A stretch of DNA of 64,000 nt, from NCBI GenBank assembly GCA_964621085.1, contig CAZUKY010000001.1:167226-231225 (forward strand), read 5' to 3'. The notes beneath the pieces were generated by a model. It saw only the letters and a list, made by a program, of their open reading frames with translations. It did not search any database and had not been told where the DNA came from. A program made the position numbers and the translations under genes. Numbering within the stretch: position 1 is the stretch's first letter; each line of letters starts with the position of its first letter. This DNA is from an uncultured Gammaproteobacteria bacterium. GTDB taxonomy: Bacteria; Patescibacteriota; Patescibacteriia; JACQRZ01. Of this stretch, positions 6,470 to 64,000 are shown piece by piece.

Positions 6470-7732
6470 TTACCGATGAGGCTCTTCCAAATAGTTCGCA
6501 TCCGAAAGTTCGTCGGGCAGGCAGCGCATATCCGTTTTCGCGTCTTGGTAGTCGTGCGCATACTTGTATCCCCTTCCGTAATCCAGTTCTTTCATAAGCT
6601 TGGTTGGCGCATTGCGCAAGTGCAATGGTACGGGCAGATTCCCATGCGTTTCCGCATCCTTTAGCGCGCGCTCCAATCCCATATACGAGCGGTTGCTCTT
6701 CTTGCTTTCAGTCAAATAGACGGTTCCATGGGCGAGCGGAATGCGGCCCTCCGGCATGCCGATCTTATCAACTGCGTCAAAGACTGCATTCGCAACGACT
6801 AGCGCCGTCGGATTCGCGCTGCCGATGTCCTCTGCCGCAAATACCACCATCCGTCGCGCGACAAACAAAGGATCCTCGCCGGCAACGATCATGCGCGCGA
6901 GCCAGTACAAGGCGGCATTCGCGTCCGAGTTGCGCATGCTTTTGATATATGCGGAAATGACATTGTAATGCTCCTCGCCCGCCTTGTCGTAGCGAAGCGC
7001 CTTTGTCTGGAGCGCATTTTCAATCGTCTCTTTTGAAATGATTTTTTTACCTTTCTCTTCCGACGCGATCGCGGCGGCGATCTCCAATGTATTGAGGAGG
7101 CTTCGCGCGTCGCCGTTTGCGAATTCGATGAGGACATCTTTTTCCGCGTTGCCGATTGCAATATCCTGCCCGCCGAGACCTCGCTCCGAGTCTCGCAATG
7201 CGCGGTCAAGAATGGCCCGGAGCGAGTCGGTCGTATGCGCGTTCAGGACAAATACTTGGGAACGGGAAAGGAGCGCGGCGTTCACCTCGAATGAGGGATT
7301 CTCCGTCGTTGCCCCGATCAGGATAATCGTGCCATCCTCGACAGAAGGCAAAAAGGCGTCCTGCTGCGCCTTGTTGAAGCGATGGATCTCGTCGATAAAA
7401 AGGATCGTCCGGCGCGAATGGAATTTGAGATCTTCCCGTGCCGCACTGATAACTGCTCGCGCCTCCTTGATGCCAGTATTCACTGCCGAGAGAGGCTCGA
7501 AGCGCGACTTGGTGCTTTCGGCGATGGCAAACGCGATCGTGGTTTTTCCCACGCCAGGCGGCCCCCAGAAAATCAACGAACGCAACTGGTCAGACTCGAT
7601 CAGCAAGCGCAACACTTTGCCAACTCCCAAGATATGCTCCTGCCCGACAATCTCATCGATCGTTCGCGGTCGCATACGATCGGCAAGCGGCGCATGTTTT
7701 GCGTCTTTCACGAGCGTATCAAAGAGATCCAT
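6470..7732 (-). CDS. rarA: Replication-associated recombination protein A (RarA/MgsA), AAA+ ATPase
   Basis: Walker A GPPGVGKTT, Walker B LFIDEIHRF, and C-terminal MgsA-type helical domains. Confidence 0.85.
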   Translation of the reverse strand: MDLFDTLVKDAKHAPLADRMRPRTIDEIVGQEHILGVGKVLRLLIESDQLRSLIFWGPPGVGKTTIAFAIAESTKSRFEPLSAVNTGIKEARAVISAAREDLKFHSRRTILFIDEIHRFNKAQQDAFLPSVEDGTIILIGATTENPSFEVNAALLSRSQVFVLNAHTTDSLRAILDRALRDSERGLGGQDIAIGNAEKDVLIEFANGDARSLLNTLEIAAAIASEEKGKKIISKETIENALQTKALRYDKAGEEHYNVISAYIKSMRNSDANAALYWLARMIVAGEDPLFVARRMVVFAAEDIGSANPTALVVANAVFDAVDKIGMPEGRIPLAHGTVYLTESKKSNRSYMGLERALKDAETHGNLPVPLHLRNAPTKLMKELDYGRGYKYAHDYQDAKTDMRCLPDELSDANYLEEPHR

Positions 7733-10477: not shown

Positions 10478-13111
10478 ATGTTCAACAATAACTTTACCAC
10501 CCGCGCCCAGGATGCTCTCCAATCAGCGCACATGCTTGCGCTCGAACGCAATCATCAGGAGCTCACGGCGCTTCACCTTCTCCTTGCTCTGCTCCGCCAG
10601 GGCGAGGGCATTGTCGTGAGCCTGCTTTCGAAACTGGAAATCAACAGCCGCGCGCTCGAGGGCCAGATTGCCGAAGAGCTCGAGTTCTTGCCGCGCACCC
10701 TCTCTTCTTCCGGAGGACAGATCTATATCTCCAAGGAAATCGCCCAGGTGCTCAACCAGGCGAATAAGGAGGCGAAAAATATCGGCGACGAGTACATCAG
10801 CACCGAACACTTGTTCCTCGCCCTTATAGAAACCCCGTCGAGCGTCCAGCGGATCCTGCAGGATTACCGCGTCGACTACAATACGATTCTCAAAACCCTG
10901 GCGCAGCTCCGCGGCACGCAGCGCGTCACCGATCCTGATCCCGAGAGCAAGTACCAGGCGCTTGCAAAGTATGCCGTCAACCTGACCGATCAGGCGCGCC
11001 AAGAAAAGCTTGATCCGGTCATCGGACGCGATGAGGAAATCCGTCGTGTCATTCAGGTGCTCTCGCGGCGCACGAAGAACAACCCGGTCCTTATCGGCGA
11101 AGCGGGCGTTGGAAAGACGGCCATTGTCGAGGGACTGGCCCAGCGCATCGTCTCAGGCGACGTCCCTGAGTCATTGAAAGATAAGGAGATCCTTGCGCTC
11201 GACCTGGGCGCGCTGATTGCCGGCACGAAGTTCCGCGGCGATTTCGAAGATCGCTTGAAAGCCGTCTTGAAAGAAATCGCGCAGAGCAGCGGCAACATTA
11301 TTCTCTTTGTCGACGAGCTTCATACGATCGTCGGCGCGGGCGGCGCTGACGGCGCGATCGACGCGTCCAACATGCTCAAACCCGCTCTTGCGCGCGGCGA
11401 GCTGCGGACGGTCGGCGCAACCACCCTCAAGGAATACCAGCAGCATATTGAAAAAGACGCGGCATTCGAACGCCGCTTCCAGCCCGTCATGGTGTCCGAA
11501 CCGTCAGTCGACGATACGATCGCCATCTTGCGCGGCATCAAAGAAAAATACGAGATCCATCACGGCGTCCGCATCACCGATGCCGCGATCGTTTCGGCGG
11601 CAAACCTCTCGCACCGCTACATCTCCGATCGCTTCCTGCCAGACAAGGCCATCGACCTGATTGACGAAGCGACATCGGCCATCCGCCTCCAGATCGACAG
11701 CCAGCCGGTCGAGCTCGACCAGTTCAAGCGCAACATTCTCAAGCTTGAGATCGAAAAACGCGCATTGCAGAAAGAAGAAGACAAGCAGTCCAAGACCCGC
11801 CTGAAAGAGCTGCAAAAAGAACTGGCGGAGTTGCAGGAGCAGGCCAATAAGCTTGAGGTTGATTGGAAGACGGAAAAAGAGATGATTTCAGAAATCCGCA
11901 CAATCCGTTCGCAGATCGAACGCCTCCGCCAGGAAGCCGATATTGCCGAACGCCGCGTCGACCTTTCCAAGGTTGCCGAGATTCGCTACGGCAAGATTCC
12001 CGAGCTGGAAAAAAACCTCAAAAAGACCATCACGAAGCTCGCCACCTTGCAAAAGAAGCACCGCTTCCTCCGCGAAGAAGTAACAGAAGAGGATGTGGCA
12101 AGTGTTGTTGCGCGCTGGACCGGCATACCCGCCTTCAAGATCATGGAAAGCGAGGCGGAAAAACTCAAGAACGCCGAACAGCAACTCGCAACGCGCGTTA
12201 TCGGACAGGATGAGGCGATCCGCGCGATCGCAAGCGCCCTGCGCCGCGCACGCGCCGGACTCTCCGAGGAGCAGCAGCCGATCGGCTCGTTCATCTTCGT
12301 CGGACCGACCGGTATCGGAAAAACCGAACTTGCCCGCGCGCTCGCGAACTTCATGTTCAACGACGACAATGCGCTGATTCGAATCGATATGAGCGAGCTT
12401 GGAGAAAAGCACTCGGTCTCGCGTCTTATCGGCTCCCCTCCCGGTTACGTTGGATATGAGGAAGGCGGCCAGCTGACCGAAAAGGTCCGCCGCAAGCCCT
12501 ACAGCGTCGTGCTCTTCGATGAGATCGAAAAAGCGCACCCCGAAATCTTCAACACGTTGCTTCAAATCCTTGATGACGGACACGTAACCGATGCCAAGGG
12601 GCGCAAGGTCAACTTCAAGAACACGATCATCATCATGACCTCCAACCTCGGCGGCGACTTGATCCGCGAGGGCGGCATCGGATTTGCCGAAGACCGGGAT
12701 CGTCGAATGGTCAACGAACAAGAATTGAACAAAGGCATCAACGAGATCATGCGAAAATCATTCAAGCCCGAGTTCCTGAACCGCATTACCGAGATCATTG
12801 TCTTCCATCCCCTCGGCGAGAAAGAGATCGGCCAGATCGTTCATCTGCAACTCGAGAAAGTCAAAGAGCGCATGAAGAAGCAAGATATCACCGTCGAATT
12901 TACCGATGCGCTCGTCGACCTGATCCGCACGCGCGGATTCGATCCGCTCTACGGCGCGCGGCCGCTGCGGCGCACGATTCAGACCCTCATCCTCAATCCG
13001 CTCGCAATGGATATCATCGAGGGCAAGGTAAAAGAGGGCGATACGATTACTATCGACTCGGATCCGCACACCGAAAAAGTAACGATCAACGCCCTTGCGC
13101 ATTCGGCTTAA
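10478..13111 (+). CDS. clpB: ATP-dependent chaperone ClpB (ORF opens at 10463; MFNNNF start preferred)
   Basis: Two AAA+ modules with Walker A GEAGVGKT and GPTGIGKT, a long middle coiled coil, and the N-domain signature [12 protein letters not shown]. Confidence 0.95.
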
Positions 13112-13137
13112 TTCAAATAGCACCTGTGAAGCGAAAG

Positions 13138-13172
13138 AAGGCGGTCCCCAGAATTGGGGGGCCGCCTTTTAT
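13138..13172 (+). terminator. Rho-independent terminator after clpB
   Basis: aaggcggtcccc / ggggggccgcctt 12-bp GC stem with a 6-nt loop, then TTTTAT. Confidence 0.7.
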
Positions 13173-13276
13173 GCTGTACTGAGAACTCGACATAGCCTCC
13201 CGCGACGATTGTAACGACTTAAAGCCCTTTTTAACCCCATCTTTTCAGAGAGCGCTGTTTTTGCTAGTATTCAACC

Positions 13277-14704
13277 ATGAAGCGTCTCGTCGGAATCCTT
13301 ATTACCACGAGCTTTTTTTTGAACATTCTTCTGCCCACAAGCGCAGGAGCGCTTTCGTTTAATCCGAACAACATCATCTCGGATTATGATTTTTTCAATA
13401 CTGACGACCTTTCACTGAAGGAGATTCAGCGCTTTCTTGAGAGGCGCAATTCCGCATTAGCGACATACACGGCATTCGATAAAGACGGGCAGCTGCGAAG
13501 TGCCGCCGAGATCATTCATCGGGCAAGTCAAACGCACGGGATCAACCCGAAAGTTCTCCTCACGCTTCTCCAAAAAGAACAAAGCCTGATCGAAAAATCA
13601 CGGCCCTCCCAATACGGTCTCGACTGGGCGACCGGCTATGCCGTGTGCGACGGCTGTTCCCTTTCCGACCCCCGCGTCACCGCCTTTAAGGGATTTGCCA
13701 CGCAAGTCGATCGCGCGGCGTGGCAAAAGAAAAAATACGCCGAGTCTCCGCAAAGCTTCACCTACCGTGCCGGAAAAACTGGACGGGTCGATGGGATGAC
13801 CGTCACGCCGGCGAACGCGGCCACCGCGGCGCTGTACAACTATACCCCGCACATCAGCGGCAACCAGAGCTTTTGGAAGATCTGGATGCGATTCTTCGGG
13901 AAGCAGTTCCCTGACGGCACCGTCGTTAAAGATGCCGATACGGACACGCTCTGGCTGATCGCAAACGGCGCGCGCAAGAAGTTTGCGTCCGTCGGGGCAT
14001 TCCTCTCGCGCTACGCTCTCGGCCAGCTGATTATCGCCAGTCCCAGCGACCTGGACGCTTATCCGATTGCCGGCGAAATTCGCTTCCACCAGTACTCGCT
14101 CCTGCAAGCTCCCAACGGCGCAGTATTCCTCTACGCCGACGACATGAAGTACGGCATTGTCTCGAAAGAAGTATTCCGCTCGCTCGGCTACAATCCAGCA
14201 GAAATCATCCGCGTCTCCCACGGCGAACTTGATGCGCTCGAGACCGGCGGTGTCATCATGAGCGCAAATGCCAGTCCGGCCGGAGAACTGATCCAAAACA
14301 AAAAAACCGGCGCCGTTTGGCATCGCATCGGAGACGCCGTTCACCCAATCTTGGAACGCGCGGTCTTACGCACACGCTTTGCGCATCAGAAAATCCGGCC
14401 AGCCAGCCCGGATGAGATCACATCGCGCATCCTGGCCGAACCGGTTGTCTTTCCGGACGGGACCCTCATCACTGAGCCAGGCAATCCCGCCGTCTACATT
14501 ATTTCGAATGGAGAACGCCGCCCATTTCTTTCCGAAGAGGCGTTCCTCGCGCTTGGGTACAGCTGGTCGCAGGTCATACCAACAACGGGCAAGACGTTAA
14601 ATCTCCATCCGCTCGGCGAGTCCATCGATATCGGCCGTACTCTGTACGGAGACGCAGAAAGCCCCATCGCAGCCGCGAGTGCCGACGAAACCCCGAATAG
14701 ATAA
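13277..14704 (+). CDS. Secreted protein with N-terminal signal peptide, hypothetical (possibly a cell-wall hydrolase-like protein)
   Basis: Signal peptide MKRLVGILITTSFFLNILLPTSAGA. Weak resemblance of HGINPKVLLTLLQKEQSL to the glucosaminidase-type motif in FlgJ-like proteins. Speculative. Confidence 0.6.
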   Translation: MKRLVGILITTSFFLNILLPTSAGALSFNPNNIISDYDFFNTDDLSLKEIQRFLERRNSALATYTAFDKDGQLRSAAEIIHRASQTHGINPKVLLTLLQKEQSLIEKSRPSQYGLDWATGYAVCDGCSLSDPRVTAFKGFATQVDRAAWQKKKYAESPQSFTYRAGKTGRVDGMTVTPANAATAALYNYTPHISGNQSFWKIWMRFFGKQFPDGTVVKDADTDTLWLIANGARKKFASVGAFLSRYALGQLIIASPSDLDAYPIAGEIRFHQYSLLQAPNGAVFLYADDMKYGIVSKEVFRSLGYNPAEIIRVSHGELDALETGGVIMSANASPAGELIQNKKTGAVWHRIGDAVHPILERAVLRTRFAHQKIRPASPDEITSRILAEPVVFPDGTLITEPGNPAVYIISNGERRPFLSEEAFLALGYSWSQVIPTTGKTLNLHPLGESIDIGRTLYGDAESPIAAASADETPNR

Positions 14705-14708
14705 CCCT

Positions 14709-15500
14709 ATGCCTCTTACCTACGGATGCATCGTTCCGCATGCACCTATCCTCCTTCCCTCGGTCGGAAAGGAGCATTTCGCGCGCCTCGAGCAAACGAT
14801 CTCCTCATTAAAAAAAATCAACGCTTCACTGAAAGAACGAAATCCTGAAACGGTATTCGTCATCGCGCCGCAAGACGAACAAAAGCCGCGGAAGCAGTTC
14901 TTCCTCCATGTCGCGCCCAAATATACCGCGACATTCGCCCAGTTCGGCGACCTGATAACCTCCCTCTCATTTGAATCTGATCCCGTTTTGGCCGATCAGA
15001 TAAAAAACAAGTTGATCGATGAAGGATTTCCAACGATCTATGCGACTGATACGGACCTTGATTACAGCGCAGCCGTGCCGCTTGTGCATATCCTGGACGG
15101 CATTCGGGCAAAGCTCGTTGTTCTCAATCCTGCCGAAAGCTCATCGCTGCGCAAGCAGTTCGAGTGCGGCAAAGTCGTGCAACGGATACTGCAAGAATCG
15201 GGAAAGCGGATCGCCGTTGTGGCGGCTGGCGATGTGTCCCATCGCGACTTGGCCAAAGATGCGCCCGATACCTCCGCTGCTGCGCATTTCGAAGAAGAGT
15301 TTCTTCACCTTCTGCGTGCCGAAAAAATAAAAAAAATTACCGGCTTTCCGCTTGCCGCCGTGCACGAAGCCCAAAGTTGCGGCATGCCCGCTTTTTCGCT
15401 GCTGTTCGGGATTTTGGAAAACATGCGGTACGAGCAAAATATCCTTTCGTTCGAATCCCCACTCGGCGTCGGCCATGCGGTCGCAGAATATACGTTTTAG
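14709..15500 (+). CDS. Class III extradiol dioxygenase / LigB-Memo superfamily protein (ORF opens at 14679)
   Basis: N-terminal GCIVPHAPILLP resembles the HGSP metal-site motif of the YgiD/LigB family. About 260 aa. Confidence 0.45.
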   Translation: MPLTYGCIVPHAPILLPSVGKEHFARLEQTISSLKKINASLKERNPETVFVIAPQDEQKPRKQFFLHVAPKYTATFAQFGDLITSLSFESDPVLADQIKNKLIDEGFPTIYATDTDLDYSAAVPLVHILDGIRAKLVVLNPAESSSLRKQFECGKVVQRILQESGKRIAVVAAGDVSHRDLAKDAPDTSAAAHFEEEFLHLLRAEKIKKITGFPLAAVHEAQSCGMPAFSLLFGILENMRYEQNILSFESPLGVGHAVAEYTF

Positions 15501-15526
15501 AACGTTTGCCCTCCTCTCCCACAATC

Positions 15527-17389
15527 ATGGTCTGCCGCATTATACCTCTCATCCGACTGCCGCAGCGTCTTGGGATTTTTGACTACGCGATTCCGGACGC
15601 TCTTCGGTCTGATGTGCGGGTCGGCAGCTGTGTTGAGATTCCTTTTCGAAAAAAAACCATAGAGGGCATCGTGTGTGCCCTCGAGCAAGACGAACTTACG
15701 AAACACGAAAAAAAGACACTGAAAGAAGTTATCCGTCTCATTCCTGATCGCTCGCTTTTACGGGAAGACGTTGATCTGATTCTCTGGATGTCTCGCACGT
15801 ATATTTGTTCGCCGGCGACGGTTTTGCGAATGATGCTCGGGACTGAGTTGAAAAGAAAGAGAGGAGAACAGTCGACAGTCGTGATGCATCCCGAATCGAA
15901 AGTCCGTATTGCGATACCCGAACCGGCCGTCTCCAACCTCAAAGACGCATTTGAGGCGATACTGGCCGACCAGCGCGTCCTCTTCCGTCCGGCGTACGCG
16001 GACGATCGCATCCTCTTGTATGCCAAGATGACAGCGACGACGCGTCAAAAAAAAGAACAGTGCCTTATCATCACGCCGACGCTTGCCGAGATGCGCTATC
16101 TTGCTGTCCGGTTGGCTGCCTATATTGAAGAATCAGCGATTCTCTGGCATCACTTCTCTTCGATGCGCGCACGAGATGCCGCTGAGCGCGCCTGTCGCGA
16201 CGGAAGCGCGCCGCTTGTCATCGGCACGCGTGGCGCTGCCGCACTTCCCTTCAAAAAGCTTGGCGCGGTCATCGTCGATCGCGCGGAATCCTGGGATCTG
16301 AAAAATTTCGACCAACATCCCCGCTATGATGCGCGCGACATCGCGCTCTATCGCGCGCGCACGAGCGGCATTCCGATCGTTTTTTGCAGCCACGCGCCGC
16401 GCATGGAAGATTATGCCGCTTCTGGCAATGGCGAGTTCAGCTATCGTGATGCGAGCACGGCATGGGAGTCTCATACCGTGCATCTTGGAGACGAACGAAG
16501 AAAGGGATTTCCGCCCCTTCTCAGCGAAGCGCTGTGCGCAGCGCTGAAACGGTGTGCCGAAGCGAAAAAAACTGCTGTCATTTTTCTCAATCGTAAAGGT
16601 ACCAGCCGGCTTGTTGTCTGCAAAGAATGCGAACACGTCTTTTCCTGTCTCGCTTGCAAGAACCTCCGCGCCTTTTTCGCCAAAGAAAACATTCTCGTTT
16701 GCGCCGCGTGCGCTCGCGTAGAAAAACTGCCCGCCCGCTGCCCGTCATGCAGAAGTACGGACTTCGCCTTCCTCGGAACCGGTTCGCAGAAACTCGCAGA
16801 GCATGTGCGAGAGATTACAGAACTCCCGGTCGTGGAAATTACGAAAGATGCGCCCGCTGCTCCAGTGCCGCAACCAGCCGTAGTAATCGCGACAAGCGCA
16901 CTGATGAGCAGATATCCGGAACTATGCGCACGTGCCGACTGTGTCGCGATTGCTCTCGCCGATCCGCTGCCGTCAAAAGAAGATTTTCGCTCCCTAGAAA
17001 CGCAATGGCAAACCTTTGCTGATATCCTTTATCGAGCGCCGCGATCCGCGAAACGCATTATCCAATCTTATGACCCGCTCCAGCCATTCGTCCAAGCGCT
17101 TGCAAAAAACGATTACGAGACTATGGCAAGACGCATTCTCGAGGAGAGGACGCGCTACGGCTGGCCGCCGGCAACGCGACTGATCCGCGTGCTGGTCAAA
17201 AAAAACGATGCGCGCGCAATTGCCCGATCCCTCGAGGTGGCATGCGCAGCAGGTGAAGAGATCGAGCGGGTGCGTGAAGGCGCAATCGTTATTAAAATGA
17301 AATCGAGCGATCCATCCGCACGTCTGAAATCAGCACTTGAAACACTTCCCGAAGGGTGTTTCGTTGACAACGATCCTATTGTGCTATAG
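15527..17389 (+). CDS. priA: Primosomal protein N' (PriA) homolog with degenerate Walker A and Walker B (ORF opens at 15164 inside the previous gene; Met at 15527 preferred)
   Basis: The helicase core aligns with E. coli PriA. LLHGVTGSGKTEVYL is replaced by ILLYAKMTATTRQKK, and VIVIDEEHD by AVIVDRAES. Cys-rich zinc region CKECEHVFSCLACKN...CAACARV...CPSCRS is retained. Confidence 0.75.
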   Translation: MVCRIIPLIRLPQRLGIFDYAIPDALRSDVRVGSCVEIPFRKKTIEGIVCALEQDELTKHEKKTLKEVIRLIPDRSLLREDVDLILWMSRTYICSPATVLRMMLGTELKRKRGEQSTVVMHPESKVRIAIPEPAVSNLKDAFEAILADQRVLFRPAYADDRILLYAKMTATTRQKKEQCLIITPTLAEMRYLAVRLAAYIEESAILWHHFSSMRARDAAERACRDGSAPLVIGTRGAAALPFKKLGAVIVDRAESWDLKNFDQHPRYDARDIALYRARTSGIPIVFCSHAPRMEDYAASGNGEFSYRDASTAWESHTVHLGDERRKGFPPLLSEALCAALKRCAEAKKTAVIFLNRKGTSRLVVCKECEHVFSCLACKNLRAFFAKENILVCAACARVEKLPARCPSCRSTDFAFLGTGSQKLAEHVREITELPVVEITKDAPAAPVPQPAVVIATSALMSRYPELCARADCVAIALADPLPSKEDFRSLETQWQTFADILYRAPRSAKRIIQSYDPLQPFVQALAKNDYETMARRILEERTRYGWPPATRLIRVLVKKNDARAIARSLEVACAAGEEIERVREGAIVIKMKSSDPSARLKSALETLPEGCFVDNDPIVL

Positions 17390-17419
17390 TTTTAGTGTCT
17401 CCATTTACATGGTCTTCCT

Positions 17420-17914
17420 ATGACTCTTCCTGTTATCACCGAGGGAAATCCGATCCTTCGCGCGCGCGCCGCCGAGGTTGCAGACTGCGCAGATCCGGAT
17501 ATCCAAAAACTGATCGATGACATGATCCCGACCATGTATGAAAAAGACGGGATCGGACTTGCTGCCCCGCAAGTCGGCGCAAGCGTGCGCATCGCCGTCA
17601 TCGTGCCGGATCCGGAGCGCTTTGAGGACTTCCGATACTCGAGAACGGCACTCGTTCTCATCAATCCGACGATCGTTCGCCACTCATGGCGAATGGAATC
17701 GGGAGAAGAGGGCTGTTTATCCGTTCCAAATATGTACGGGCAGGTGCGCCGATGGAAAAGCCTCACGGCCACCTACCTCGACCGCGACGGCACCCATCAA
17801 ACAATACGCGCAAAGGGACTCATGGCACGCGTCATTCAGCATGAGATCGACCACCTCAACGGCATTCTTTTTATCGACAAGGCGAAAAACACCTACCGCA
17901 TCCGACCGTCCTAA
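17420..17914 (+). CDS. def: Peptide deformylase
   Basis: Motifs GIGLAAPQVG, EGCLSVP and HEIDHLNG. Confidence 0.9.
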   Translation: MTLPVITEGNPILRARAAEVADCADPDIQKLIDDMIPTMYEKDGIGLAAPQVGASVRIAVIVPDPERFEDFRYSRTALVLINPTIVRHSWRMESGEEGCLSVPNMYGQVRRWKSLTATYLDRDGTHQTIRAKGLMARVIQHEIDHLNGILFIDKAKNTYRIRPS

Positions 17915-18243
17915 CTGTTTTTTGATCTCTCTTCTATTTTTTTTGCATCGCTTGCAAGCATCGCATTCCATGCAGCTGCAAGATCGATGTTCAGCTCGTG
18001 GGCGATAAAGAGCGTTTCTGCCATGATGTCTGCGAGCTCGTCTGCAAGTTTCTCTTTTATTTCTTCCTCGTTCAATCCCTCAGCATAGCGATAGCCCTTC
18101 AACTGAAGGATACGCTTCGTCAGGTTGCCAATCTGGTATTGCAGATCTTGCGCTGCAATCTCATACGTCCAGGTTTTCGTCCCCTGCCTATCGTATTCCT
18201 TGAACATGCGAACGATCTGCTCGGTCATTGTTTTGATGTCCAT
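17911..18243 (-). CDS. MazG-like nucleoside-triphosphate pyrophosphohydrolase (all-alpha NTP-PPase), small form
   Basis: 110 aa with an EExxE/D-type helical core (EEEIKEKLADELADI). Convergent 4-nt overlap with def. Confidence 0.55.
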   Translation of the reverse strand: MDIKTMTEQIVRMFKEYDRQGTKTWTYEIAAQDLQYQIGNLTKRILQLKGYRYAEGLNEEEIKEKLADELADIMAETLFIAHELNIDLAAAWNAMLASDAKKIEERSKNS

Positions 18244-18257
18244 ATACGAGGAAGGGG

Positions 18258-18950
18258 TTATTTTTTTATCCGCATGTCAAACTCCTTTGCGAGATTCGTG
18301 AGCGGCTTCGCCGCAGCGGCAAATAAATCGGATTTTGAAAAGTATTCGATTGTTCCTATCTTTGTCATAACGTCGTACTCGCCAAGTGCGGAGTCCAAAA
18401 AAATAAATCCCGCCTGGCCGAACAATTCGTACGCATCGTCGGTATAACCATCAAAGTAGAGCTTTACTCCAACCTTCTCCCCTTCATCGTGAAGGGTATA
18501 ATGAATCGATTCTGCGCTGAGCGCAAGATCGCCGAAACGTAGTTCTAGGTCAGCAAGGTCGTCTTTTCGCTGCTTGAATTTCTTGATATCCCATCGCTCC
18601 AAAGGCGGACGAACGTCGTAGAGCTTCTCAACGACTGAAATCGCATCTGAAATACCGCTTGGCGAAATGACAAATTCACGCTTCCCATTCACGACCGGTC
18701 CGAACTCAAAAGAGAGGTTCGAGTGAATTTTTCTCAAATGATCATCAAGTCCCTCGAGAGCAGCCTCGGGATAGTTCTCAATATCAAACAAGGCGTCTTC
18801 ATTCTCAAGAAAGAAGCTCCAAAATTTTTCATATTGATTCGGCCGTTGAAGAAATGAAAACATATTTGTTTGAATCGTCGAGTAAAAAATTAAGACGGTG
18901 GCAGTGATAGCGGCAGCGACAAGAGCGATTGTTATCAATACTTGTTTCAT
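18258..18950 (-). CDS. Membrane-anchored hypothetical protein (N-terminal TM helix)
   Basis: TM segment VLITIALVAAAITATVLIF followed by a ~200-aa soluble domain. 4-nt start/stop overlap with the upstream MazG-like gene. Confidence 0.5.
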   Translation of the reverse strand: MKQVLITIALVAAAITATVLIFYSTIQTNMFSFLQRPNQYEKFWSFFLENEDALFDIENYPEAALEGLDDHLRKIHSNLSFEFGPVVNGKREFVISPSGISDAISVVEKLYDVRPPLERWDIKKFKQRKDDLADLELRFGDLALSAESIHYTLHDEGEKVGVKLYFDGYTDDAYELFGQAGFIFLDSALGEYDVMTKIGTIEYFSKSDLFAAAAKPLTNLAKEFDMRIKK

Positions 18951-19315
18951 ACGGCAACCCCCTTATATCCCTCGATCGGATTCGAGTGTACGCCCTTGCT
19001 TTTTTCAATCGGATATTTTGTCCTGTTTTTTTCGAGCTTATCCAAGATCGCCTGATCGAGGTTAATATCTAGTTTATACGCGAGCGTAAGCAGATACATG
19101 AAGATATCTGCGACCTCTTCTTCGACTTTCTTTTTCTTCACGGGATCGGCATGAAGATTCGCAATCTCTTCACTGCTGAGCCAACGATAACACTCTGCCA
19201 ACTCTCCGACCTCGCTCATGAGCGCGACGACAAGATCCTTGGGATTATGGAACTGATCCCAGTCGCGCTCGTAGTTAAACAGGCGTAATGTTTCTTTCAG
19301 TTGCTCAAGATTCAT
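18947..19315 (-). CDS. MazG-like / dCTP-pyrophosphatase-like NTP pyrophosphohydrolase
   Basis: Typical of the MazG-like all-alpha family: ELAECYRWLSSEE ... EEEVADIFMYLLTLAYKLDINLDQAI. Confidence 0.6.
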   Translation of the reverse strand: MNLEQLKETLRLFNYERDWDQFHNPKDLVVALMSEVGELAECYRWLSSEEIANLHADPVKKKKVEEEVADIFMYLLTLAYKLDINLDQAILDKLEKNRTKYPIEKSKGVHSNPIEGYKGVAV

Positions 19316-19364
19316 ATAACTCTACTTTAAACCATTTGCCACGCAGTGCAAGGATGGGTATGAT

Positions 19365-19928
19365 TCAGCGATCTGGAAAAGCGATGTGATTCCATCCCAG
19401 TTGTTCGTTTTCCGATTGAAGTCCTTTCAAGATCGAGTAGCCATGATCATCTGAATTCTGGATCGCATCAAACGTTGGCCCGTCAACAAAATATACCTGA
19501 ACGCCGGCATCGAGCATCGCTTTAAACGCCGATTCGTATTCCGTCTTTCCAGTCGGCCGAACCGGAACGCGACTCGTCCACTCTGTCGCGCTTTTTGACG
19601 CATCGCAGTGGAATGTATCAGAGGGTATCGCATAGATTGCGCCGCCCGCATCCATCGCTTCAAACCGTTCGCGGTCGCTAATAATGATCGTACGTACGCC
19701 ATCATACGTGCTGATCTGGGTCCAGCTATCATTTGTAGGCACGAGGAATCGGGTAGCCCCTGCCTTGTCCGGCGTTGCGAATACGACCGGTCCCTCGTTT
19801 GGATCGCGTACCGTTTCTGCCCGCGGCTCGAACTCCGTGATGTCTTTATTCGACGACGCGTGATACAACACAGCCGGCTTTTCAAGCTCGATTTTTTGAA
19901 AACTCACTTCCGGCAGTTCATTGGTCAT
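19365..19928 (-). CDS. Hypothetical protein (ORF opens at 20063; Met giving a 4-nt overlap with the upstream gene preferred)
   Basis: Continuous ORF, last gene of the minus-strand block containing the PEP-utilizing proteins. No family recognised. Confidence 0.4.
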   Translation of the reverse strand: MTNELPEVSFQKIELEKPAVLYHASSNKDITEFEPRAETVRDPNEGPVVFATPDKAGATRFLVPTNDSWTQISTYDGVRTIIISDRERFEAMDAGGAIYAIPSDTFHCDASKSATEWTSRVPVRPTGKTEYESAFKAMLDAGVQVYFVDGPTFDAIQNSDDHGYSILKGLQSENEQLGWNHIAFPDR

Positions 19929-20917
19929 AGTATGATTTTTCGTGCAATGCCGTTTGCCGCATCGACTTCTATGATATCGCCTTCTCGAAACACGCGTGTC
20001 GCTATTCGAGTGCCGGTAATCGTCGGTATGCCGAGTTCGCGCGCACAGATCGCCGCGTGACACGTGATGCCACCTTCGTCGGTAATGACGGCACCGGCAC
20101 GGGCGAATGCCGGCGCATACGTGGCATTGGTCATGACTGCAACAAGAATGTCTCCCTCGCCCACGCGATCCAGATCTTCCCGATTACGGACAATGCGCAC
20201 AATCCCGCGTGCCGTGCCCGGCTGAGCGCACGCGCCGCGCACCTCCGAAACACTCTCAAGCTGCTCATCGTCTTCCGGATTTCTCAGCCCCTGCTCGGCA
20301 AGATATTCCTGAAAGGACTTCTCAAGCATTATACCTTCGACACGAAGATATCCCTCGAGACGGCTCGACATCCTTTCTGCGGCCTCTGAGACATTCTCAA
20401 GATCGTCCAATGTTAGGACATGCGCAAGTCGCGGATCCAATCCTTCTTCTTGAAGCAGATCGGCAATGCAGTGCTCGATCTCTGCATCGAGCTCGTACAG
20501 GATTCCTTCGGAAAGATTTCGGGCGTGCCAGCTTTCAGGACAAGCCTTTACAAATGCATCGCTCACGACAAATACATAAAACGCCATCGCGCTTCCGATA
20601 AGCGCATGAATCTCGCGCAAATGTTCAAGCGTCACGTGATTTTTCAACTCCTTCAGTCGATGAATCTGTTCGCAAAATACCGTATTCTGTATTTCAAACA
20701 AACGATCATCCTCAATAAGTCGCTTCGTGATCGTCTCTTTAAAATACGCAAAATCGGATGCCCGATGGTAGAAATGCACGCGCGCGCCGTCATAACGGAA
20801 AATGACCGGATACTCCCACCCGAAATATTCTTTGAAATATTGTTTGTACCCCAACTCCCAGGCTGTGACTGAGAACAGGCTCAAATCTCGTTTTACTGTT
20901 GGACGCAAGAGATGCAT
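19925..20917 (-). CDS. PEP-utilizing-enzyme mobile (phosphohistidine swivel) domain protein with an unrelated ~240-aa N-terminal domain (paralog B')
   Basis: C-terminal GTARGIVRIV...ILVAVMTNATYAPAFARAGAVITDEGGITCHAAICARELGIPTITG is the PEP-utilizers His-domain signature with a catalytic His. Confidence 0.65.
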   Translation of the reverse strand: MHLLRPTVKRDLSLFSVTAWELGYKQYFKEYFGWEYPVIFRYDGARVHFYHRASDFAYFKETITKRLIEDDRLFEIQNTVFCEQIHRLKELKNHVTLEHLREIHALIGSAMAFYVFVVSDAFVKACPESWHARNLSEGILYELDAEIEHCIADLLQEEGLDPRLAHVLTLDDLENVSEAAERMSSRLEGYLRVEGIMLEKSFQEYLAEQGLRNPEDDEQLESVSEVRGACAQPGTARGIVRIVRNREDLDRVGEGDILVAVMTNATYAPAFARAGAVITDEGGITCHAAICARELGIPTITGTRIATRVFREGDIIEVDAANGIARKIIL

Positions 20918-21020
20918 AGCGGTAGTATAGTGTCACTTTAAGCTCAAGTTGCTAAAAATGCAAAAACGGAAGGCGCACACGGCACCTCCCGCCCAGTTGG
21001 TATCTGATGACTCTCCACTT

Positions 21021-21590
21021 CTACCGAACGGCTCCGAGCCACGCAACCCGCATGTCAGGAAACTCGACGTCGAACCTCCAGATATCGCCGCAGGCGGAGT
21101 TCCGCCCGTGTTCCTTATTGTGCCTCCGCCAGGCAGCCATCATCTCGTCGTCTGTCGGGTAAAAGTTGTCCGCATCAGCAAGAGCCGCCTCCATGATCAT
21201 ACCGCTCGTGATGGCGACAATCACGGCTCCAGGTTCGCACCTCTGATCCCGGAACCTGCACCACTTGCTGTTGAGCACGTGCCACGGCTCGGCGCGGCCA
21301 TACATCTTCCCTCCTACATAGACCGATGTTGTGGTGAGCTCTTGGACAAAGCTGAACAGCGTACGGGGCGGAAAACCCGCTTGCATCGTTTCGGACATGC
21401 GCCGAGACGTACCAACGAAGACTTTGCTCGGCGTGCCGATGGCTGCCAACCTTTCCGCCAAAACAGGTCCGTGTTCTGCAACCCATATTGCACTCAAGCC
21501 CGGATCCGCCTCTTCCAGTTGGCGAGCATCGTCGACGCTTGGCTCACCATGTCGCACCAAATACAACGTTGCGAGCTTGTTTTTCGTCAC
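21021..21590 (-). CDS. Histidine phosphatase superfamily protein (phosphoglycerate-mutase-like)
   Basis: N-terminal LYLVRHGE catalytic RHG motif. Confidence 0.7.
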   Translation of the reverse strand: MTKNKLATLYLVRHGEPSVDDARQLEEADPGLSAIWVAEHGPVLAERLAAIGTPSKVFVGTSRRMSETMQAGFPPRTLFSFVQELTTTSVYVGGKMYGRAEPWHVLNSKWCRFRDQRCEPGAVIVAITSGMIMEAALADADNFYPTDDEMMAAWRRHNKEHGRNSACGDIWRFDVEFPDMRVAWLGAVR

Positions 21591-21670
21591 TCCCTATCTC
21601 CTCGGACACCACTCTTACAGACGCAAAAATCCTATCCAATGAATAGCTTTTTGTCAATCAACAAGAATGC

Positions 21671-22786
21671 TCATTGCGTGCGTTTTTCGAGAATTCTCAC
21701 CACTCCGCGATCTGCGTCAACTTCGACAATATCGCCGTCGCTGATTACTGACGTTGCGTTTCCGGTTCCGATGATGCATGGCTTCTTTAATTCACGGGCA
21801 ATAATCGCCGGATGGGAGAGGATCCCGCCTGTATCTGTTATGATCGCACCTGCGCGCTTCATCAACGGAACATAGCGCACGTCGGTACTCACGCAAACAA
21901 GAATTGCGCCTTCCGGAAAATCGAGACTGGAAACGGTTTCATCGGTAACGCGACACACCAGCCCCCTTGCAATACCCGAAAATGCGCTCACCCCCTTCAG
22001 TTCAGCGCTGTCTCCGCCTTGTTGAATAAATACATGCGGCGCTGGCGTGGGAATAGAGCGCGGCATCATGCGATTGAAATCAAAAAAATACAGATCATCA
22101 CCGGGAACAACCGCCTCGAAATAGCCCAGCAGATAGTTATTTGAAAACATCGCGTTGACCGCATCGCAAAGCGCATCTTGGCGCACGCTCTCCGCAACAT
22201 GGAGGTGGGCGACCATGCGTTCAACCTGAGCAATTGCCTCCTCATTATGCGCAGACCACTGCCACGTCTGGTAGTCGAAAAAGAACCGATACGCTTCACC
22301 CGTAAGTATGCCCTGTGAAAGCTGGTAGGGCGTCCCCTTGGCTATCTCGCCAAAGAGCGCATCTTCCTTGATGACGAGAAAAATCGACCAGCGAATGTCT
22401 GACTCATCGGGAAACACATGAACGGTATATGAATCCAGATCAATTTCTTGCGCACGGAACCATTGCTCGTAGCATTCCGCAATCGATAGCCCCCTATTGC
22501 GCAGCTTTGGAAGATCCGGCGTGTTGGGAATCAAACGAAAGGCGCAGCGCTCACTGCCATGATCCTGCAAAAGCCTGCGCACTGCATCGCTCTTTTCTTG
22601 CATTTCCCGCGCCGTAAAAACTTTCGGCGCACGAAATGGAACGCCGATAAGTCTGTTCAAGATCGAGAGGCGCTCTGTTTTTTCATTATCTTCCTTGCGA
22701 AATTCGGCAGACTCCTCAAGTTGTCCGATTTCGGCGAACCATTCGGTCATGGATGGGTGGTATGGTTTTGTTTTTGATTGAGACAT
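21671..22786 (-). CDS. PEP-utilizing-enzyme mobile-domain protein with a novel ~270-aa N-terminal (putative substrate-binding) domain (partner B)
   Basis: C-terminal GIARGLVCRV...ILVCVSTDVRYVPLMKRAGAIITDTGGILSHPAIIARELKKPCIIGTG swivel domain. Lies 22 nt downstream of the PPDK_N gene. Confidence 0.65.
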   Translation of the reverse strand: MSQSKTKPYHPSMTEWFAEIGQLEESAEFRKEDNEKTERLSILNRLIGVPFRAPKVFTAREMQEKSDAVRRLLQDHGSERCAFRLIPNTPDLPKLRNRGLSIAECYEQWFRAQEIDLDSYTVHVFPDESDIRWSIFLVIKEDALFGEIAKGTPYQLSQGILTGEAYRFFFDYQTWQWSAHNEEAIAQVERMVAHLHVAESVRQDALCDAVNAMFSNNYLLGYFEAVVPGDDLYFFDFNRMMPRSIPTPAPHVFIQQGGDSAELKGVSAFSGIARGLVCRVTDETVSSLDFPEGAILVCVSTDVRYVPLMKRAGAIITDTGGILSHPAIIARELKKPCIIGTGNATSVISDGDIVEVDADRGVVRILEKRTQ

Positions 22787-22808
22787 ACGAATTCAAAGGA
22801 ATCACATA

Positions 22809-23774
22809 TTACTGCTGTCCCGCAGCTTCCTGCCACGTAAGCGTTGTGATCGGTCTGCTTTGCGTTATAAAGAATTTTTCGTCGGCACATGCCCACTCGA
22901 TATCGCACGGAAAACCGTAATAATTCTCGATCTTCACTATGATGCCTGATAGCTCTAAAATTTTCTCGTCAGACAAAACTTGCTCTTTTTCTTGTTCCCT
23001 CGAAAGCGCGCGCCACTCGTTTCCGCCGCGTGCGGCACGATACAGTCCCTTCACGTGCTTCTGAACAGCTTTATCAAAAATGCCGCGCGGTTGTTTTTCG
23101 ACAACATACGTATCGGGCGTCACCTGTCCCGAAACGATCGCCTCTCCAAGACCGAAGCCGGCCTCGATGACCATCTGATTGTAATCCTGCGTCACCGGAT
23201 GAACGGTGAACGCGATCCCAGACACCTCGGACTGCACCATCGCTTGGACGACGACAGCAACGGATACCGGCGAGTCATGGAGTCCTTTTTCGAAACGATA
23301 AAAGATAGCCCGCGGCGTGAAGAGCGACGCCCAGCACCGCTTGATGTTGTTGAGAAGATCTTCTTCTGTCGTATTAAGATATGTCTCAAGTTGGCCGGCC
23401 CATGCAGCCGATGCGCTGTCCTCCGTCGTTGCGGAAGATCTTACGGCAACGTACTCGCATGCAAGAGCGTGGAATGCATCCGTAATCTCTCTCGCCAGTG
23501 CTTCTGGTATTTCTCGCGCGATAATTAGCGCTTGAATCCTTTCGGATGCCGCCTCGACCGTATGCATCTTTGCGTGATCTACCGTATGGAGAATGGCATC
23601 GATGTCGACGGAAAGCTGCTCGCGTTCAATGAAAGTATCGAATGCATCCGATAGGATGACATATCCTGGCGGAACCGAGATGCCCGCCCGGGTCATTTCT
23701 CCAAGCGACGCACCCTTTCCCCCGGCACGAGAGACATCATTCTTTGTAATCTCTGAAAACCATTGTACAAACAT
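22809..23774 (-). CDS. Stand-alone PEP-synthase / pyruvate-phosphate-dikinase N-terminal ATP-grasp nucleotide-binding domain protein (PPDK_N)
   Basis: Diagnostic of the PPDK_N family: GGKGASLGEM, VAVRSSATTEDSASAAWAGQ and VQAMVQSEVSGIAFTVHP. No His or TIM-barrel domain in this polypeptide. Confidence 0.75.
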   Translation of the reverse strand: MFVQWFSEITKNDVSRAGGKGASLGEMTRAGISVPPGYVILSDAFDTFIEREQLSVDIDAILHTVDHAKMHTVEAASERIQALIIAREIPEALAREITDAFHALACEYVAVRSSATTEDSASAAWAGQLETYLNTTEEDLLNNIKRCWASLFTPRAIFYRFEKGLHDSPVSVAVVVQAMVQSEVSGIAFTVHPVTQDYNQMVIEAGFGLGEAIVSGQVTPDTYVVEKQPRGIFDKAVQKHVKGLYRAARGGNEWRALSREQEKEQVLSDEKILELSGIIVKIENYYGFPCDIEWACADEKFFITQSRPITTLTWQEAAGQQ

Positions 23775-23798
23775 ACTCCCGCTGCCTGAGACGCCATT

Positions 23799-24326
23799 TT
23801 ATGTGCTCACCCGTTCCTGCTGATACAACCGAACTGCTGCCGCAATCTCCTCTGGAGTGCCGTCGATGCACTCATAGTGCCGCGCCTCATCCTCATTTAC
23901 CCACGCGTACCCATCAAACGCGCCCTCTTCAACCTTTACTTCTCCATCTTTATAGCGTGCTGCCATCTTGATAAGAATCACGGGAATGCCGTCCGGACGC
24001 ACGAAAAATACACTTTTGAGGTATGTGAGGTCTGGGTGGATCGTAACACCAGCCTCTTCGGCTACTTCGCGCATCAGCAGTTCTTCGAGCGCATTATCAA
24101 AATCAAGAATATCGCCATTGATGCGCGAGGGTTTCGACAGATCGAACTGCCCCCACTCAAGCTTTCCGCCAGGAGTTGCATACCTTCCCGGATGCGCCTT
24201 TTCATTCATGCTTCGCTTCAAGATAAGACACCGTCCATCCGACTCGCGATAGATCACAGCGTTGACAACAAAATACATAAGCTTATCGGACTTCGCGTGC
24301 TCCAAGGATATCTTTTCTGCAGGCAT
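23799..24326 (-). CDS. NUDIX hydrolase
   Basis: Nudix box GGKLEWGQ...EELLMREVAEEAGV. Confidence 0.8.
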   Translation of the reverse strand: MPAEKISLEHAKSDKLMYFVVNAVIYRESDGRCLILKRSMNEKAHPGRYATPGGKLEWGQFDLSKPSRINGDILDFDNALEELLMREVAEEAGVTIHPDLTYLKSVFFVRPDGIPVILIKMAARYKDGEVKVEEGAFDGYAWVNEDEARHYECIDGTPEEIAAAVRLYQQERVST

Positions 24327-24390
24327 AGAGTGATTTTTTATGATAGAGAAAGCTTATCAAGCCAACAGGATCGCAGCAAGTCAACACAGA

Positions 24391-24801
24391 CTAGGCCGTC
24401 GGTAACTCATGGCGATAATCTTTGACTTCGTCTTCCATTTCAACAAGAACTGCCGTAACAGGGACGATTTGGTGATGTTTTTCTATTTTAAAATACTTAA
24501 TGGGCTTCCCCATATCAGACGCTATTTTTATCTCGGCGAGCACGCCATTTGAAATAGCTCCAAACACCCACAACTCATCGGCACGCTTTACAAGATTGTT
24601 ATTGCCCTCACGAACCAAGTCCCTGTCGACGGTGTCCAATAAAAAATAATCAAAAATCATGAACGGATTTAACGGCACGCCGTGCTGCTCAATGACGAAC
24701 TTCGACACGAACATACGATAATAGAACAAGTGCTTTGACATTGCCGTATACACCAGGTTTTTATCAGCAGTCAATTGTAATGCTTCGTGGGTAAATGACA
24801 T
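24391..24801 (-). CDS. Hypothetical protein, possibly of the nucleoside 2-deoxyribosyltransferase-like (DUF4406-type) fold
   Basis: Weak motif similarity (ELWVFGAISNGVLAEIKIASDMGKPIKYF). Speculative. Confidence 0.35.
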   Translation of the reverse strand: MSFTHEALQLTADKNLVYTAMSKHLFYYRMFVSKFVIEQHGVPLNPFMIFDYFLLDTVDRDLVREGNNNLVKRADELWVFGAISNGVLAEIKIASDMGKPIKYFKIEKHHQIVPVTAVLVEMEDEVKDYRHELPTA

Positions 24802-24899
24802 AAATATGATATTTAACTCTTATCACGAAGAGTCCCCATTAACGGGAGTCTCTCTTTATGGTAGCTTACAGAAATACTGAAAAACATCAAAAGTCCGCT

Positions 24900-25823
24900 A
24901 TGAATCCCCGCATTATTTTTATGGGAACGCCCCTTTATGCGGTCCCTTTTCTTGAGGGATTGGTTGCAGCCGGGATGAAGCCGGTCGCTGTCGTGTCGCA
25001 ACCGGATAAGCCCGTCGGACGGAAGCAGGTTTTCGAACCCACTGCCGTCAAGGCGGCTGCCGAGAAACACAGTATCCCCATTCTGCAGCCGCAAAAAATC
25101 CGCGATGAGGAATGGGTTGAAAAAATTCGCGAGCTTGCGCCGGATCTGATCGTCGTTGTCGCCTTCGGGCAGATCATTCCGAAGAGCATTTTGGATATTC
25201 CGAGATATGGGTGCGTTAACGTGCATCCCTCGCTCCTTCCCCGCCACAGAGGCGCAGCTCCACTCCAGGAGACGATCCTCTCAGGCGATACCGAGTCTGC
25301 GGTCACGATCATGCTCATGGACGAACAGATGGATCACGGACCTGTCTTGCGTCAGGAGCGATTTGATGTAGACCCGGCAGAAACGTATGACTCACTGCGC
25401 AAGAAAACAACACGGATCGGCGTGTCGCTTCTCATCGTGACGCTGCATGACCTGCTTGCCGGCGCAATCGAGCCGCAGGAACAGGATCACGCTAAGGCAA
25501 CATATACCCGACTCCTCACCCGCGACGCCGGAAAGATCGACTGGTCCGAAGACGCGCTAACGATCGAACGCAAAGTGCGCGCGCTCAATCCCTGGCCGGG
25601 CGTCTGGACAGAATGGAATGGCAAGCGTTTAAAAATCCTCCGCGCACGGCTTTTCTCGCTCGAACCACTTCCCCACACATCAGTGTTTGAAATCCTCACC
25701 CCGCATACGGATCCTGTCCTGGTTGCGCACTGCAATCCGGGCGCATTGATTATCGATGAAATCCAGCCCGAAGGAAAAACGCCAATGGACGGACTCTCAT
25801 TCGCTCGCGGGTATCTGCACTAA
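24900..25823 (+). CDS. fmt: Methionyl-tRNA formyltransferase (ORF opens at 24858; MNPRIIFMGTP start preferred)
   Basis: Formyltransferase N-domain IIFMGTPLYAVPFL...VVSQPDKPVGR, motif NVHPSLLPRHRGAAP, and a C-terminal Fmt domain. Confidence 0.9.
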   Translation: MNPRIIFMGTPLYAVPFLEGLVAAGMKPVAVVSQPDKPVGRKQVFEPTAVKAAAEKHSIPILQPQKIRDEEWVEKIRELAPDLIVVVAFGQIIPKSILDIPRYGCVNVHPSLLPRHRGAAPLQETILSGDTESAVTIMLMDEQMDHGPVLRQERFDVDPAETYDSLRKKTTRIGVSLLIVTLHDLLAGAIEPQEQDHAKATYTRLLTRDAGKIDWSEDALTIERKVRALNPWPGVWTEWNGKRLKILRARLFSLEPLPHTSVFEILTPHTDPVLVAHCNPGALIIDEIQPEGKTPMDGLSFARGYLH

Positions 25824-45208: not shown

Positions 45209-45232
45209 AGAGTGGTGTATCCTGGCAGAGAA

Positions 45233-47005: not shown

Positions 47006-47020
47006 TGCGGTTGTGTTCAG

Positions 47021-51574: not shown

Positions 51575-51699
51575 ACAACGTGGAACGCGAAGAGGAAAAT
51601 TGCAATAAAAACGGGCTCCAAACAAACTAGAAATTGAGTATATCCAAAAACAAAAAAAAGGCAATGCCTTTTTCTTGTAATAAGGAGGGTTTAAGGCTG

Positions 51700-56594: not shown

Positions 56595-56763
56595 TGATGT
56601 ACCTCCTTCACACCCTGGGGATCCAGGGACGCGCGTCTGATATGCGCTGCCAACAGGCGAAACGCTGGGCACTATTATTGCACGTAATGACGAGTTTGTC
56701 AAGACTCTTGAACACATCAGTGATACAGAAGAGCTTAACTATACGAAAACCGACCCCAAACCC

Positions 56764-56792
56764 TTGACAGATGAGGCATTTTTTGATAGTAT
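56764..56792 (+). promoter_or_regulatory. Consensus-like sigma70 promoter (TTGACA, 17 nt spacer, TAGTAT) for the secreted-protein gene
   Basis: TTGACA at 56764-56769 and TAGTAT at 56787-56792. AAAGGAG RBS 7 nt before the ATG at 56951. Confidence 0.5.
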
Positions 56793-59181: not shown

Positions 59182-59186
59182 TCTTT

Positions 59187-63998: not shown

Positions 63999-64000
63999 GA

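Follow-up and report, generated by a model that had tools for sequence, protein, structure and literature searches.

Background

Two PriA proteins without motor activity have been described, one from the laboratory and one from nature. The exchange K230R (priA300) deprives Escherichia coli PriA of its ATPase, helicase and translocase activities, yet the protein continues to build primosomes and to sustain the PriA-PriB pathway (PMC5778457). It does not function in the PriA-PriC pathway or in the replication of phage Mu. The PriA of Deinococcus radiodurans carries degenerate Walker boxes, with the lysine replaced by arginine, and neither hydrolyzes ATP nor unwinds DNA (Lopper, Boone & Morrow 2015, PMC4504706). 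Its affinity for single-stranded DNA (ssDNA) and for forks is close to normal, and it also interacts with DnaB (PMC4504706). The main review treats Deinococcus-Thermus as the sole exception to the PriA motor (PMC5778457). Here we analyze a priA-like gene for a protein of 620 amino acids (aa) on a stretch of 64,000 nucleotides from an uncultured bacterium (assembly GCA_964621085.1, contig CAZUKY010000001.1, positions 167,226 to 231,225; deposited as Gammaproteobacteria, GTDB lineage Patescibacteriota). This whole stretch is referred to below as the window. The protein has lost the nucleotide-site motifs of PriA and belongs to a large family with the same losses. We consider it likely, from sequence and predicted structure, that it is a PriA ortholog turned pseudohelicase, that is, an ATPase-dead scaffold that recognizes forks and recruits the helicase. 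PriA pseudohelicases as a concept are already known from Deinococcus and priA300; how widespread they are in a major bacterial radiation does not seem to have been described in the open-access papers and bioRxiv preprints searched.

Results and discussion

A PriA homolog that has lost its nucleotide site

The gene (Table 1) begins, as judged from the alignments, at its true start with the ATG at 15527: family members align from residue 1 of this frame, and the longer open reading frame (ORF) from 15164 runs into the upstream gene. The protein matches the PriA chains in the PDB with an E value of 1e-39, the best being those of Klebsiella pneumoniae and E. coli, which puts its homology to PriA well outside the range of chance. 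The alignment with E. coli PriA (620 aa versus 732 aa) is gapped and reaches about 22–25% identity. Family models capture less of it. The Pfam scan gave PriA_3primeBD (PF17764, E 2e-18) as sole match, the score against NCBIfam TIGR00595 (priA) was 208.6 bits, under the equivalog cutoff of 230.35, and the PRK05580 and PRK14873 sub-models stayed far under their cutoffs.

Motif columns were taken from MAFFT alignments of the protein with E. coli K-12 PriA and many homologs. None of the PriA motifs I, II (DEEH), III and VI was found in it. The column of the Walker A loop GVTGSGKT is occupied by the glycine-free segment P155-I162, and R161 (about 16007-16009) stands in the column of the E. coli lysine K230, in the MAFFT alignment as well as in a gap-free register fixed at motif Ia. 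The AlphaFold model places a strand (150-154), a three-residue turn and a helix (158-174) at the former P-loop. Neither GxGK[ST] nor [AG]xxxxGK[ST] occurs in the six frames of 15401-17500. At Walker B the columns read VIVIDEEH in E. coli and AVIVDRAE here. Motif III is replaced, only the T of GTQMLAKG survives from motif V, and both arginines remain at motif VI.

An earlier note on this DNA, made from the sequence alone, had proposed a PriA homolog without Walker A and Walker B. Its replacement of DEEH by DRAE is borne out by the column-for-column alignment. It was also right that Walker A is gone, but the segment it named as the replacement, AKMTATTRQ, lies in the helix behind the former P-loop; the true equivalent, PAYADDRI, is about ten residues off, on the upstream side of the start that the note had given. 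The loss goes beyond the two Walker motifs that it had listed, extending to motifs III and VI and to the greater part of V, and its "residue-for-residue" alignment of the helicase core overstates a gapped match of this low identity. The 3'-binding and Cys-rich regions that it had reported are indeed there, as described below; the winged helix is not.

Since the P-loop glycines, the Walker A lysine, DEEH, motifs III and VI and most of motif V are lost, the protein should be unable to bind or hydrolyze ATP, to translocate or to unwind DNA. We regard its ATPase as very probably dead, and DNA-dependent ATPase and 3'-5' helicase activity are predicted to be absent. The arginine at the lysine column is the type of change known from E. 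coli K230R and from Deinococcus-Thermus, which supports this reading. The sequence features of a D. radiodurans-type pseudohelicase, namely non-consensus Walker A and B boxes and a replaced catalytic lysine, are found here in R161 and DRAE. With the Deinococcus protein our homolog shares orthology to PriA, the non-consensus boxes, the arginine at the lysine column, a PriA-like architecture and the proposed role of a non-motor fork binder that recruits DnaB. Going by the published description, it differs in its Patescibacteria lineage, in the absence of the winged helix and in a more radical loss, which takes in the entire glycine-rich loop along with motifs III, V and VI instead of key residues only. 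Like priA300 it carries an arginine where Walker A has its lysine, but priA300 is a laboratory point mutant with an otherwise intact core, whereas the loss seen here is natural, fixed and far more extensive.

Retained DNA-binding and structural elements

With E. coli PriA (TIGR00595; structures 6DCR and 8FAK, and 4NL4 from K. pneumoniae) the 620-aa protein shares the D/Y/K pocket of the 3' DNA-binding domain (3'BD), motifs Ia, Ib and IV, the aromatic-rich loop (ARL), the pair of RecA-like lobes with the Cys-rich region (CRR) inserted in lobe 2, whose eight cysteines serve two zinc ions, probably the C-terminal domain (CTD), and the priA-def-fmt neighborhood. The E. coli protein has in addition a circularly permuted winged-helix (WH) domain (109-181), placed behind the 3'BD and ahead of the helicase core, and motifs I, II, III and VI, which are missing here. 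In the alignment the pocket residues D19, Y20 and K66 are equivalent to E. coli D17, Y18 and K61, and motifs Ia (P) and Ib (GTR) are kept. The roles of the E. coli 3'-end pocket residues and of the ARL have been described (PMC5778457).

The AlphaFold model is confident overall (pLDDT 88, pTM 0.88), also in the C-terminal part, and superposes on full-length PriA. In Foldseek the top nine matches were all PriA (E 1e-37 to 1e-42, TM about 0.7), followed by Mfd and DEAD-box helicases. According to the model, the two-lobe RecA-like fold of helicase superfamily 2 (SF2) is thus present.

The WH domain, which the earlier note had counted among the retained parts, is absent as judged by both alignment and model. 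The corresponding interval measures 38 residues here versus 111 in E. coli PriA (105-215), residues 111-140 are modeled as coil with pLDDT 45-63, and the top structural match in the PDB is 6DCR, the WH-deletion protein of E. coli PriA (Foldseek E 1e-42, TM 0.70). A disordered linker of about 30 residues takes its place. The WH is not universal among PriAs, as some canonical GKT-positive proteins likewise do without it. Short canonical PriAs of Patescibacteria, such as that of a Moranbacteria representative (P0047, 669 aa), resemble the 620-aa protein in the priA-def-fmt slot, the 36-54-residue linker instead of the WH, the CRR and the CTD, but they keep GxGKT, DEE[HQ], SAT and GRxxR. The existence of such WH-less canonical PriAs means that WH loss and ATPase loss are separable events.

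A large family of degenerate PriA proteins

An exhaustive phmmer search of 1.84 billion representatives gave 13,733 matches, and the motif columns were tabulated for the best 149 (50% identity level). Motifs I, III and VI are missing in 122 of these 149, and in 123 sequences if the 620-aa protein is counted. The degenerate representatives have about 540-700 aa, mostly 600-660, and are devoid of GKT, DEEH, SAT and GRxGR. Canonical PriAs (GVTGSGKTE, DEEH, GSA, GRAGR; about 660-890 aa) rank only lower among the phmmer matches. The closest relatives found by phmmer are 31-36% identical to the 620-aa protein; a word-indexed search had given only about 26%. Against a hidden Markov model (HMM) of the degenerate family, built without it, the protein scores 547 bits, versus 333 bits against an HMM of canonical PriAs. 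Annotation of the family varies, with some members listed as "hypothetical protein" (P0125) and others as primosomal protein N'.

The conservation among the 123 degenerate sequences is uneven. None of the six loop columns holds a glycine in 104 of the 123, and the motif III and VI columns are unconserved, including the two arginines present in our protein. At Walker B the family follows the pattern hhhhD-x-[ESA]-[EHD], to which DRAE conforms. The 3'BD pocket, on the other hand, is kept (F 92%, D 74%, Y 97%, the K61 equivalent 85%), as are the PRY..R core of the ARL (P 100%, R 91%, Y 76%, R 78%), the GTR of motif Ib, the N-R-x-G of motif IV (N 93%, G 100%) and the PP motif (99%). Each of the CRR cysteines is found in 121-123 of the 123 representatives (98-100%). 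As read from the alignments, the pattern is selective: residues of the nucleotide site are lost, and residues that contact DNA or carry the architecture are kept.

The former lysine column of Walker A holds K or R in 72% of the family, usually with an acidic residue just before it. A K or R there co-occurs with D or E in the column of the Walker B aspartate (odds ratio 4.9, p 4e-4, uncorrected for phylogeny). The pairing of R161 with D251 may represent a retained Lys-Asp-type salt bridge that steadies the empty site.

The relatives found in the searches carry the source names Patescibacteria group, Candidatus Falkowbacteria and Candidatus Uhrbacteria. A scan of GTDB with a pattern derived from a three-sequence alignment gave ten species representatives, all without the motifs: one from Uhrbacteria, two from Falkowbacteria, one from Kerfeldbacteria, four from "Patescibacteria group" (one of them a single-cell genome) and two TPA bins labeled Gammaproteobacteria. 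The last two (CAZNEH010000015.1 and CAZRYK010000008.1, "uncultured Gammaproteobacteria bacterium") carry a degenerate PriA of the Patescibacteria type and are probably mislabeled or contaminated. Because the named relatives are all Patescibacteria, the motor loss in this group is likely to be independent of that in Deinococcus-Thermus. In a neighbor-joining tree of 272 PriA homologs most degenerate sequences cluster, but long-branch attraction is likely and makes the tree unusable for counting losses.

Two further groups showed comparable losses. Actinobacterial PriAs of the PRK14873 type (P0272-P0275, with Micromonospora echinospora as P0275) resemble the family in having neither GKT nor DEEH and no Pfam DEAD or Helicase_C match; they differ in forming a distant branch (23-25% identity) and in an extra N-terminal PF27106 region. 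At the Walker sites these homologs read, for example, ...ALPGEDWP... and VVIWDDGDD. They were the sole addition from a second word-indexed search, made with the family profile, which otherwise gave mostly the candidates of the first. A separate GC-rich degenerate group of about 640-667 aa (P0010, P0018, P0029, P0032, P0041 and P0078) keeps the Pfam matches PriA_CRR and PriA_C, has LPATT... for GKT and DQED at Walker B, and is distinct from the Patescibacteria family. With Patescibacteria, Deinococcus-Thermus and Actinobacteria taken together, the PriA motor seems to have been lost in at least three lineages. We found no description of PriA motif loss in Patescibacteria (the candidate phyla radiation, CPR) or in Actinobacteria and mycobacteria among open-access papers and bioRxiv preprints.

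Genomic position

The priA-def-fmt neighborhood is conserved in many bacteria. The genes here run in the order ClpB, unknown protein (475 aa), LigB/Memo-like gene, priA-like gene and def, with fmt following behind an insert of about 7 kb (Table 1). A degenerate relative (P0124, on 10 contigs including a groundwater metagenome) shows the matching order with def and fmt adjacent. The context GluRS..WecG-LigT-priA-def-fmt-rhodanese is common to another degenerate member (P0109) and to the canonical PriA of Moranbacteria (P0047). As degenerate and canonical PriAs share this slot, the degenerate proteins hold the ancestral priA position. The window contains one PriA-like locus.

Table 1 Features of the priA-like gene and its neighborhood (window positions)
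Feature	Position	Strand	Remarks
LigB/Memo-like gene (AmmeMemoRadiSam-type)	14709-15500	+	upstream; syntenic neighbor of degenerate priA in relatives
priA-like gene	15527-17389	+	620 aa plus stop; intact ORF; encoded N-terminus MVCRIIPLIRLP
3' DNA-binding domain (residues 1-104)	15527-15838	+	PF17764; 3'-end pocket kept
Linker (residues 105-136)	15839-15934	+	low-confidence coil at WH position
Former Walker A / motif I	15989-16012	+	PAYADDRI (P155-I162) at GVTGSGKT column; glycine-free
AKMTATTRQ	16022-16048	+	helix after P-loop; approximately E. coli S235-Q243
Walker B / motif II remnant	16277-16288	+	DRAE for DEEH; E. coli D320-H323
Aromatic-rich loop KNFDQHPRYDARD	16301-16339	+	strongly conserved; DNA-contacting element, lobe 1
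Motif III remnant	16385-16399	+	CSHAP replacing GSATP
Motif IV	16583-16600	+	FLNRKG; kept
Cys-rich region	16619-16750	+	eight zinc-ligand Cys, CxxC...CxxC...CxxC...CxxC, all aligned
Motif V remnant	16886-16912	+	IATSALMSR
Motif VI remnant	17030-17047	+	YRAPRS replacing GRAGRA, within DILYRAPRS
Probable C-terminal domain (about residues 545-620)	17159-17386	+	invariant WPP and terminal D-x-DP; model confident to 620
def (peptide deformylase)	17420-17914	+	directly downstream of priA-like gene
fmt (methionyl-tRNA formyltransferase)	24858-25823	+	parted from def by minus-strand insert of about 7 kb

Proposed function and alternative explanations

The 620-aa protein may be expected to bind ssDNA and forks, since the 3'BD pocket, the ARL and motifs Ia, Ib and IV are conserved. 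By analogy with the described motor-less PriAs it probably still serves replication restart. In the mechanism that we propose, the two RecA-like lobes still fold, as modeled, with the nucleotide site dismantled, and the 3'BD pocket would cap the nascent leading strand at its 3' end. An abandoned fork or D-loop would be recognized via the 3'BD and the inactive lobes. The resulting static platform would then recruit the replicative helicase DnaB, either directly, as reported for D. radiodurans PriA, or via a loader, and other enzymes would have to unwind any nascent lagging strand. To our knowledge, the partners PriB and DnaT are not expected outside proteobacteria. The earlier note had likewise suggested a structural-only restart factor that does not hydrolyze ATP. 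Sequence, structure prediction, synteny and family conservation support the core of this idea, which is not new (PMC4504706, PMC5778457). Its framing as part of a minimal replisome fits the Patescibacteria origin, seen here through 64 kb of the genome.

Could the losses be an artifact? A sequencing or assembly error in a gene that really encodes GKT and DEEH, or a decaying, non-functional pseudogene, might be suspected from the homopolymer of eight adenines at about 16040-16047, inside the region flagged in the earlier note, and from the score under the TIGR00595 cutoff. We consider this scarcely credible and effectively refuted. The homopolymer leaves the frame unbroken, the 620 codons being uninterrupted with PriA homology on either side, and the independent Logan assembly of SRR5011273, which may share its sample with the source assembly, is identical to window positions 11630-27389 over 15,760 nt. 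The same losses recur in at least 122 other cluster representatives and in 10 GTDB genomes, one of them from a single cell. The near-invariant non-catalytic elements of the family, the confident AlphaFold model and purifying selection in a related degenerate pair also argue against decay. A GKT hidden by a frameshift or in another frame was rejected on the six-frame scan. A genome-wide loss of Walker motifs was rejected as well, for RarA, both ClpB modules, the type IV secretion system (T4SS) coupling-protein-like ORF and thymidine kinase, all encoded in the window, keep an intact Walker A.

The protein might still use nucleotide through a non-canonical site made up, for example, of R161, D251, E254 and the two motif VI arginines, or through a second weak site, and act as a weak motor or ATP-gated switch. 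The arginine at the Walker A lysine column, the aspartate at the first Walker B column, the YRAPR at motif VI and the K/R with D/E co-occurrence in the family point in this direction, and E. coli PriA has been proposed to possess such a second, weak site for nucleotide (PMC5778457). But the P-loop glycines are all lost, here as in most of the family, the loop is modeled as the start of a helix, K230R by itself abolishes the E. coli ATPase, neither motif III nor the pair of motif VI arginines is conserved in the family, and a structural salt bridge accounts equally well for the K/R-D pairing. We therefore hold this to be very unlikely. Less improbable, though still unlikely in our view, is that the protein has been repurposed as a DNA-structure binder, for example as a fork or D-loop sensor or as a regulator acting with RecG, RarA or DnaB, and that restart is left to another factor or priA copy. 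Divergence has been very fast (nearest relative at most 36% identical), the WH and all catalytic motifs are gone, a RarA/MgsA gene lies 8 kb upstream, and the window gives a view of 64 kb of the genome. Against repurposing stand the ancestral priA-def-fmt slot, which is that of canonical PriA in related Patescibacteria, the fact that the conserved features (3'BD pocket, ARL, CRR) are exactly those for fork recognition, and the precedent of ATPase-dead PriAs, of which that of E. coli supports restart and that of D. radiodurans interacts with DnaB.

Several points weigh against the scaffold that we favor. D251, E254 and both motif VI arginines (YRAPR) remain, leaving a small chance of residual nucleotide interaction. 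The Pfam models PriA_CRR and PriA_C (PF18074) stay below significance on the 620-aa protein. A second, canonical priA is possible elsewhere in the genome, of which 64 kb were covered, and a cognate DnaB, loader or SSB was not seen within the window. In the degenerate pair P0002/P0003 (69% aa identity), nonsynonymous differences are rarer than synonymous ones (pN 0.19, pS 0.74; in lobe 1 pN 0.23, pS 0.87), which indicates purifying selection in a qualitative sense only, dS being saturated and dN/dS a rough bound. This pair is 26% identical to the 620-aa protein, whose own closest known relative reaches only about 34-36%, so that selection was measured in relatives. For the family as a whole, the functional reading draws on sequence, predicted structure and analogy.

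Other features of the window

Between def and fmt, positions 17911-24801 (minus strand) encode two MazG-like proteins, split PEP-utilizer/PPDK_N genes, a NUDIX protein, DUF6886 and DUF7768. The GC content dips to 0.47 at 18-20 kb, versus about 0.54, and def and fmt are adjacent in three related loci (L003, L006 and L009). PADLOC gave only a weak PDC-S07 match on this insert, to the NUDIX protein. The segment may be a nucleotide-metabolism or mobile island.

The RarA/MgsA gene at 6470-7732 (minus strand) encodes a replication-associated recombination AAA+ ATPase with intact Walker A (GPPGVGKT) and Walker B (ILFIDE). It is a possible partner of the PriA-like protein at stalled forks.

The gene content resembles that of a patescibacterium, with a short alanyl-tRNA synthetase (AlaRS), PBP2, RsmH, many glycosyltransferases and a fusion of SecD with a peptidyl-prolyl isomerase (PPIase). 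This last protein (49445-51664, minus strand; 739 aa) has SecD/SecF domains and two PpiC-type PPIase (rotamase) matches, an unusual translocon-chaperone fusion. AlaRS (36885-38630, minus strand) has only 581 aa and consists of the catalytic core and the second additional domain, and RpoA (33896-34750, minus strand; 284 aa) gave no Pfam match for the alpha-CTD at E < 1e-5. Truncated housekeeping proteins of this kind are typical of reduced genomes. The Rfam scan of the window found one tRNA and nothing near the priA-like gene.

On either side of the T4SS coupling-protein-like ATPase (45233-47005; TrwB/TraG matches, Walker A GKTGMGKS) lies a large ORF without Pfam match (43640-45208 and 47021-48448), and this minus-strand segment (43640-48448) may be a DNA-transfer or uptake module. 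From 55776 to 64000 the GC content varies from 0.62 at 56-60 kb to 0.42 at 62-64 kb, and several ORFs of 300-490 aa have no Pfam match. Long ORFs on opposite strands overlap there (56792-57730, minus, versus 56843-58321, plus), which makes the gene calls in this part uncertain.

Conclusions

With at least 122 further cluster representatives, the family described here extends the Deinococcus exception to a very large radiation of reduced genomes. In practice, TIGR00595 and the Pfam models DEAD and Helicase_C miss degenerate PriAs or score them under the cutoff. We lean, by a modest degree, towards a broader view: that in many Patescibacteria the sole PriA is a WH-less protein without an ATP site, under purifying selection in the ancestral slot; that, together with Actinobacteria and Deinococcus-Thermus, motor loss is recurrent; and that the conserved core role of PriA is fork recognition and helicase recruitment rather than unwinding. 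The family offers a natural minimal PriA (about 620 aa, without WH and motor) for dissecting fork recognition and reloading, and it raises the question of which partner such a protein uses, DnaB, a loader or SSB. It strengthens the view that the indispensable job of PriA is structure-specific fork recognition and reloading of the replisome.

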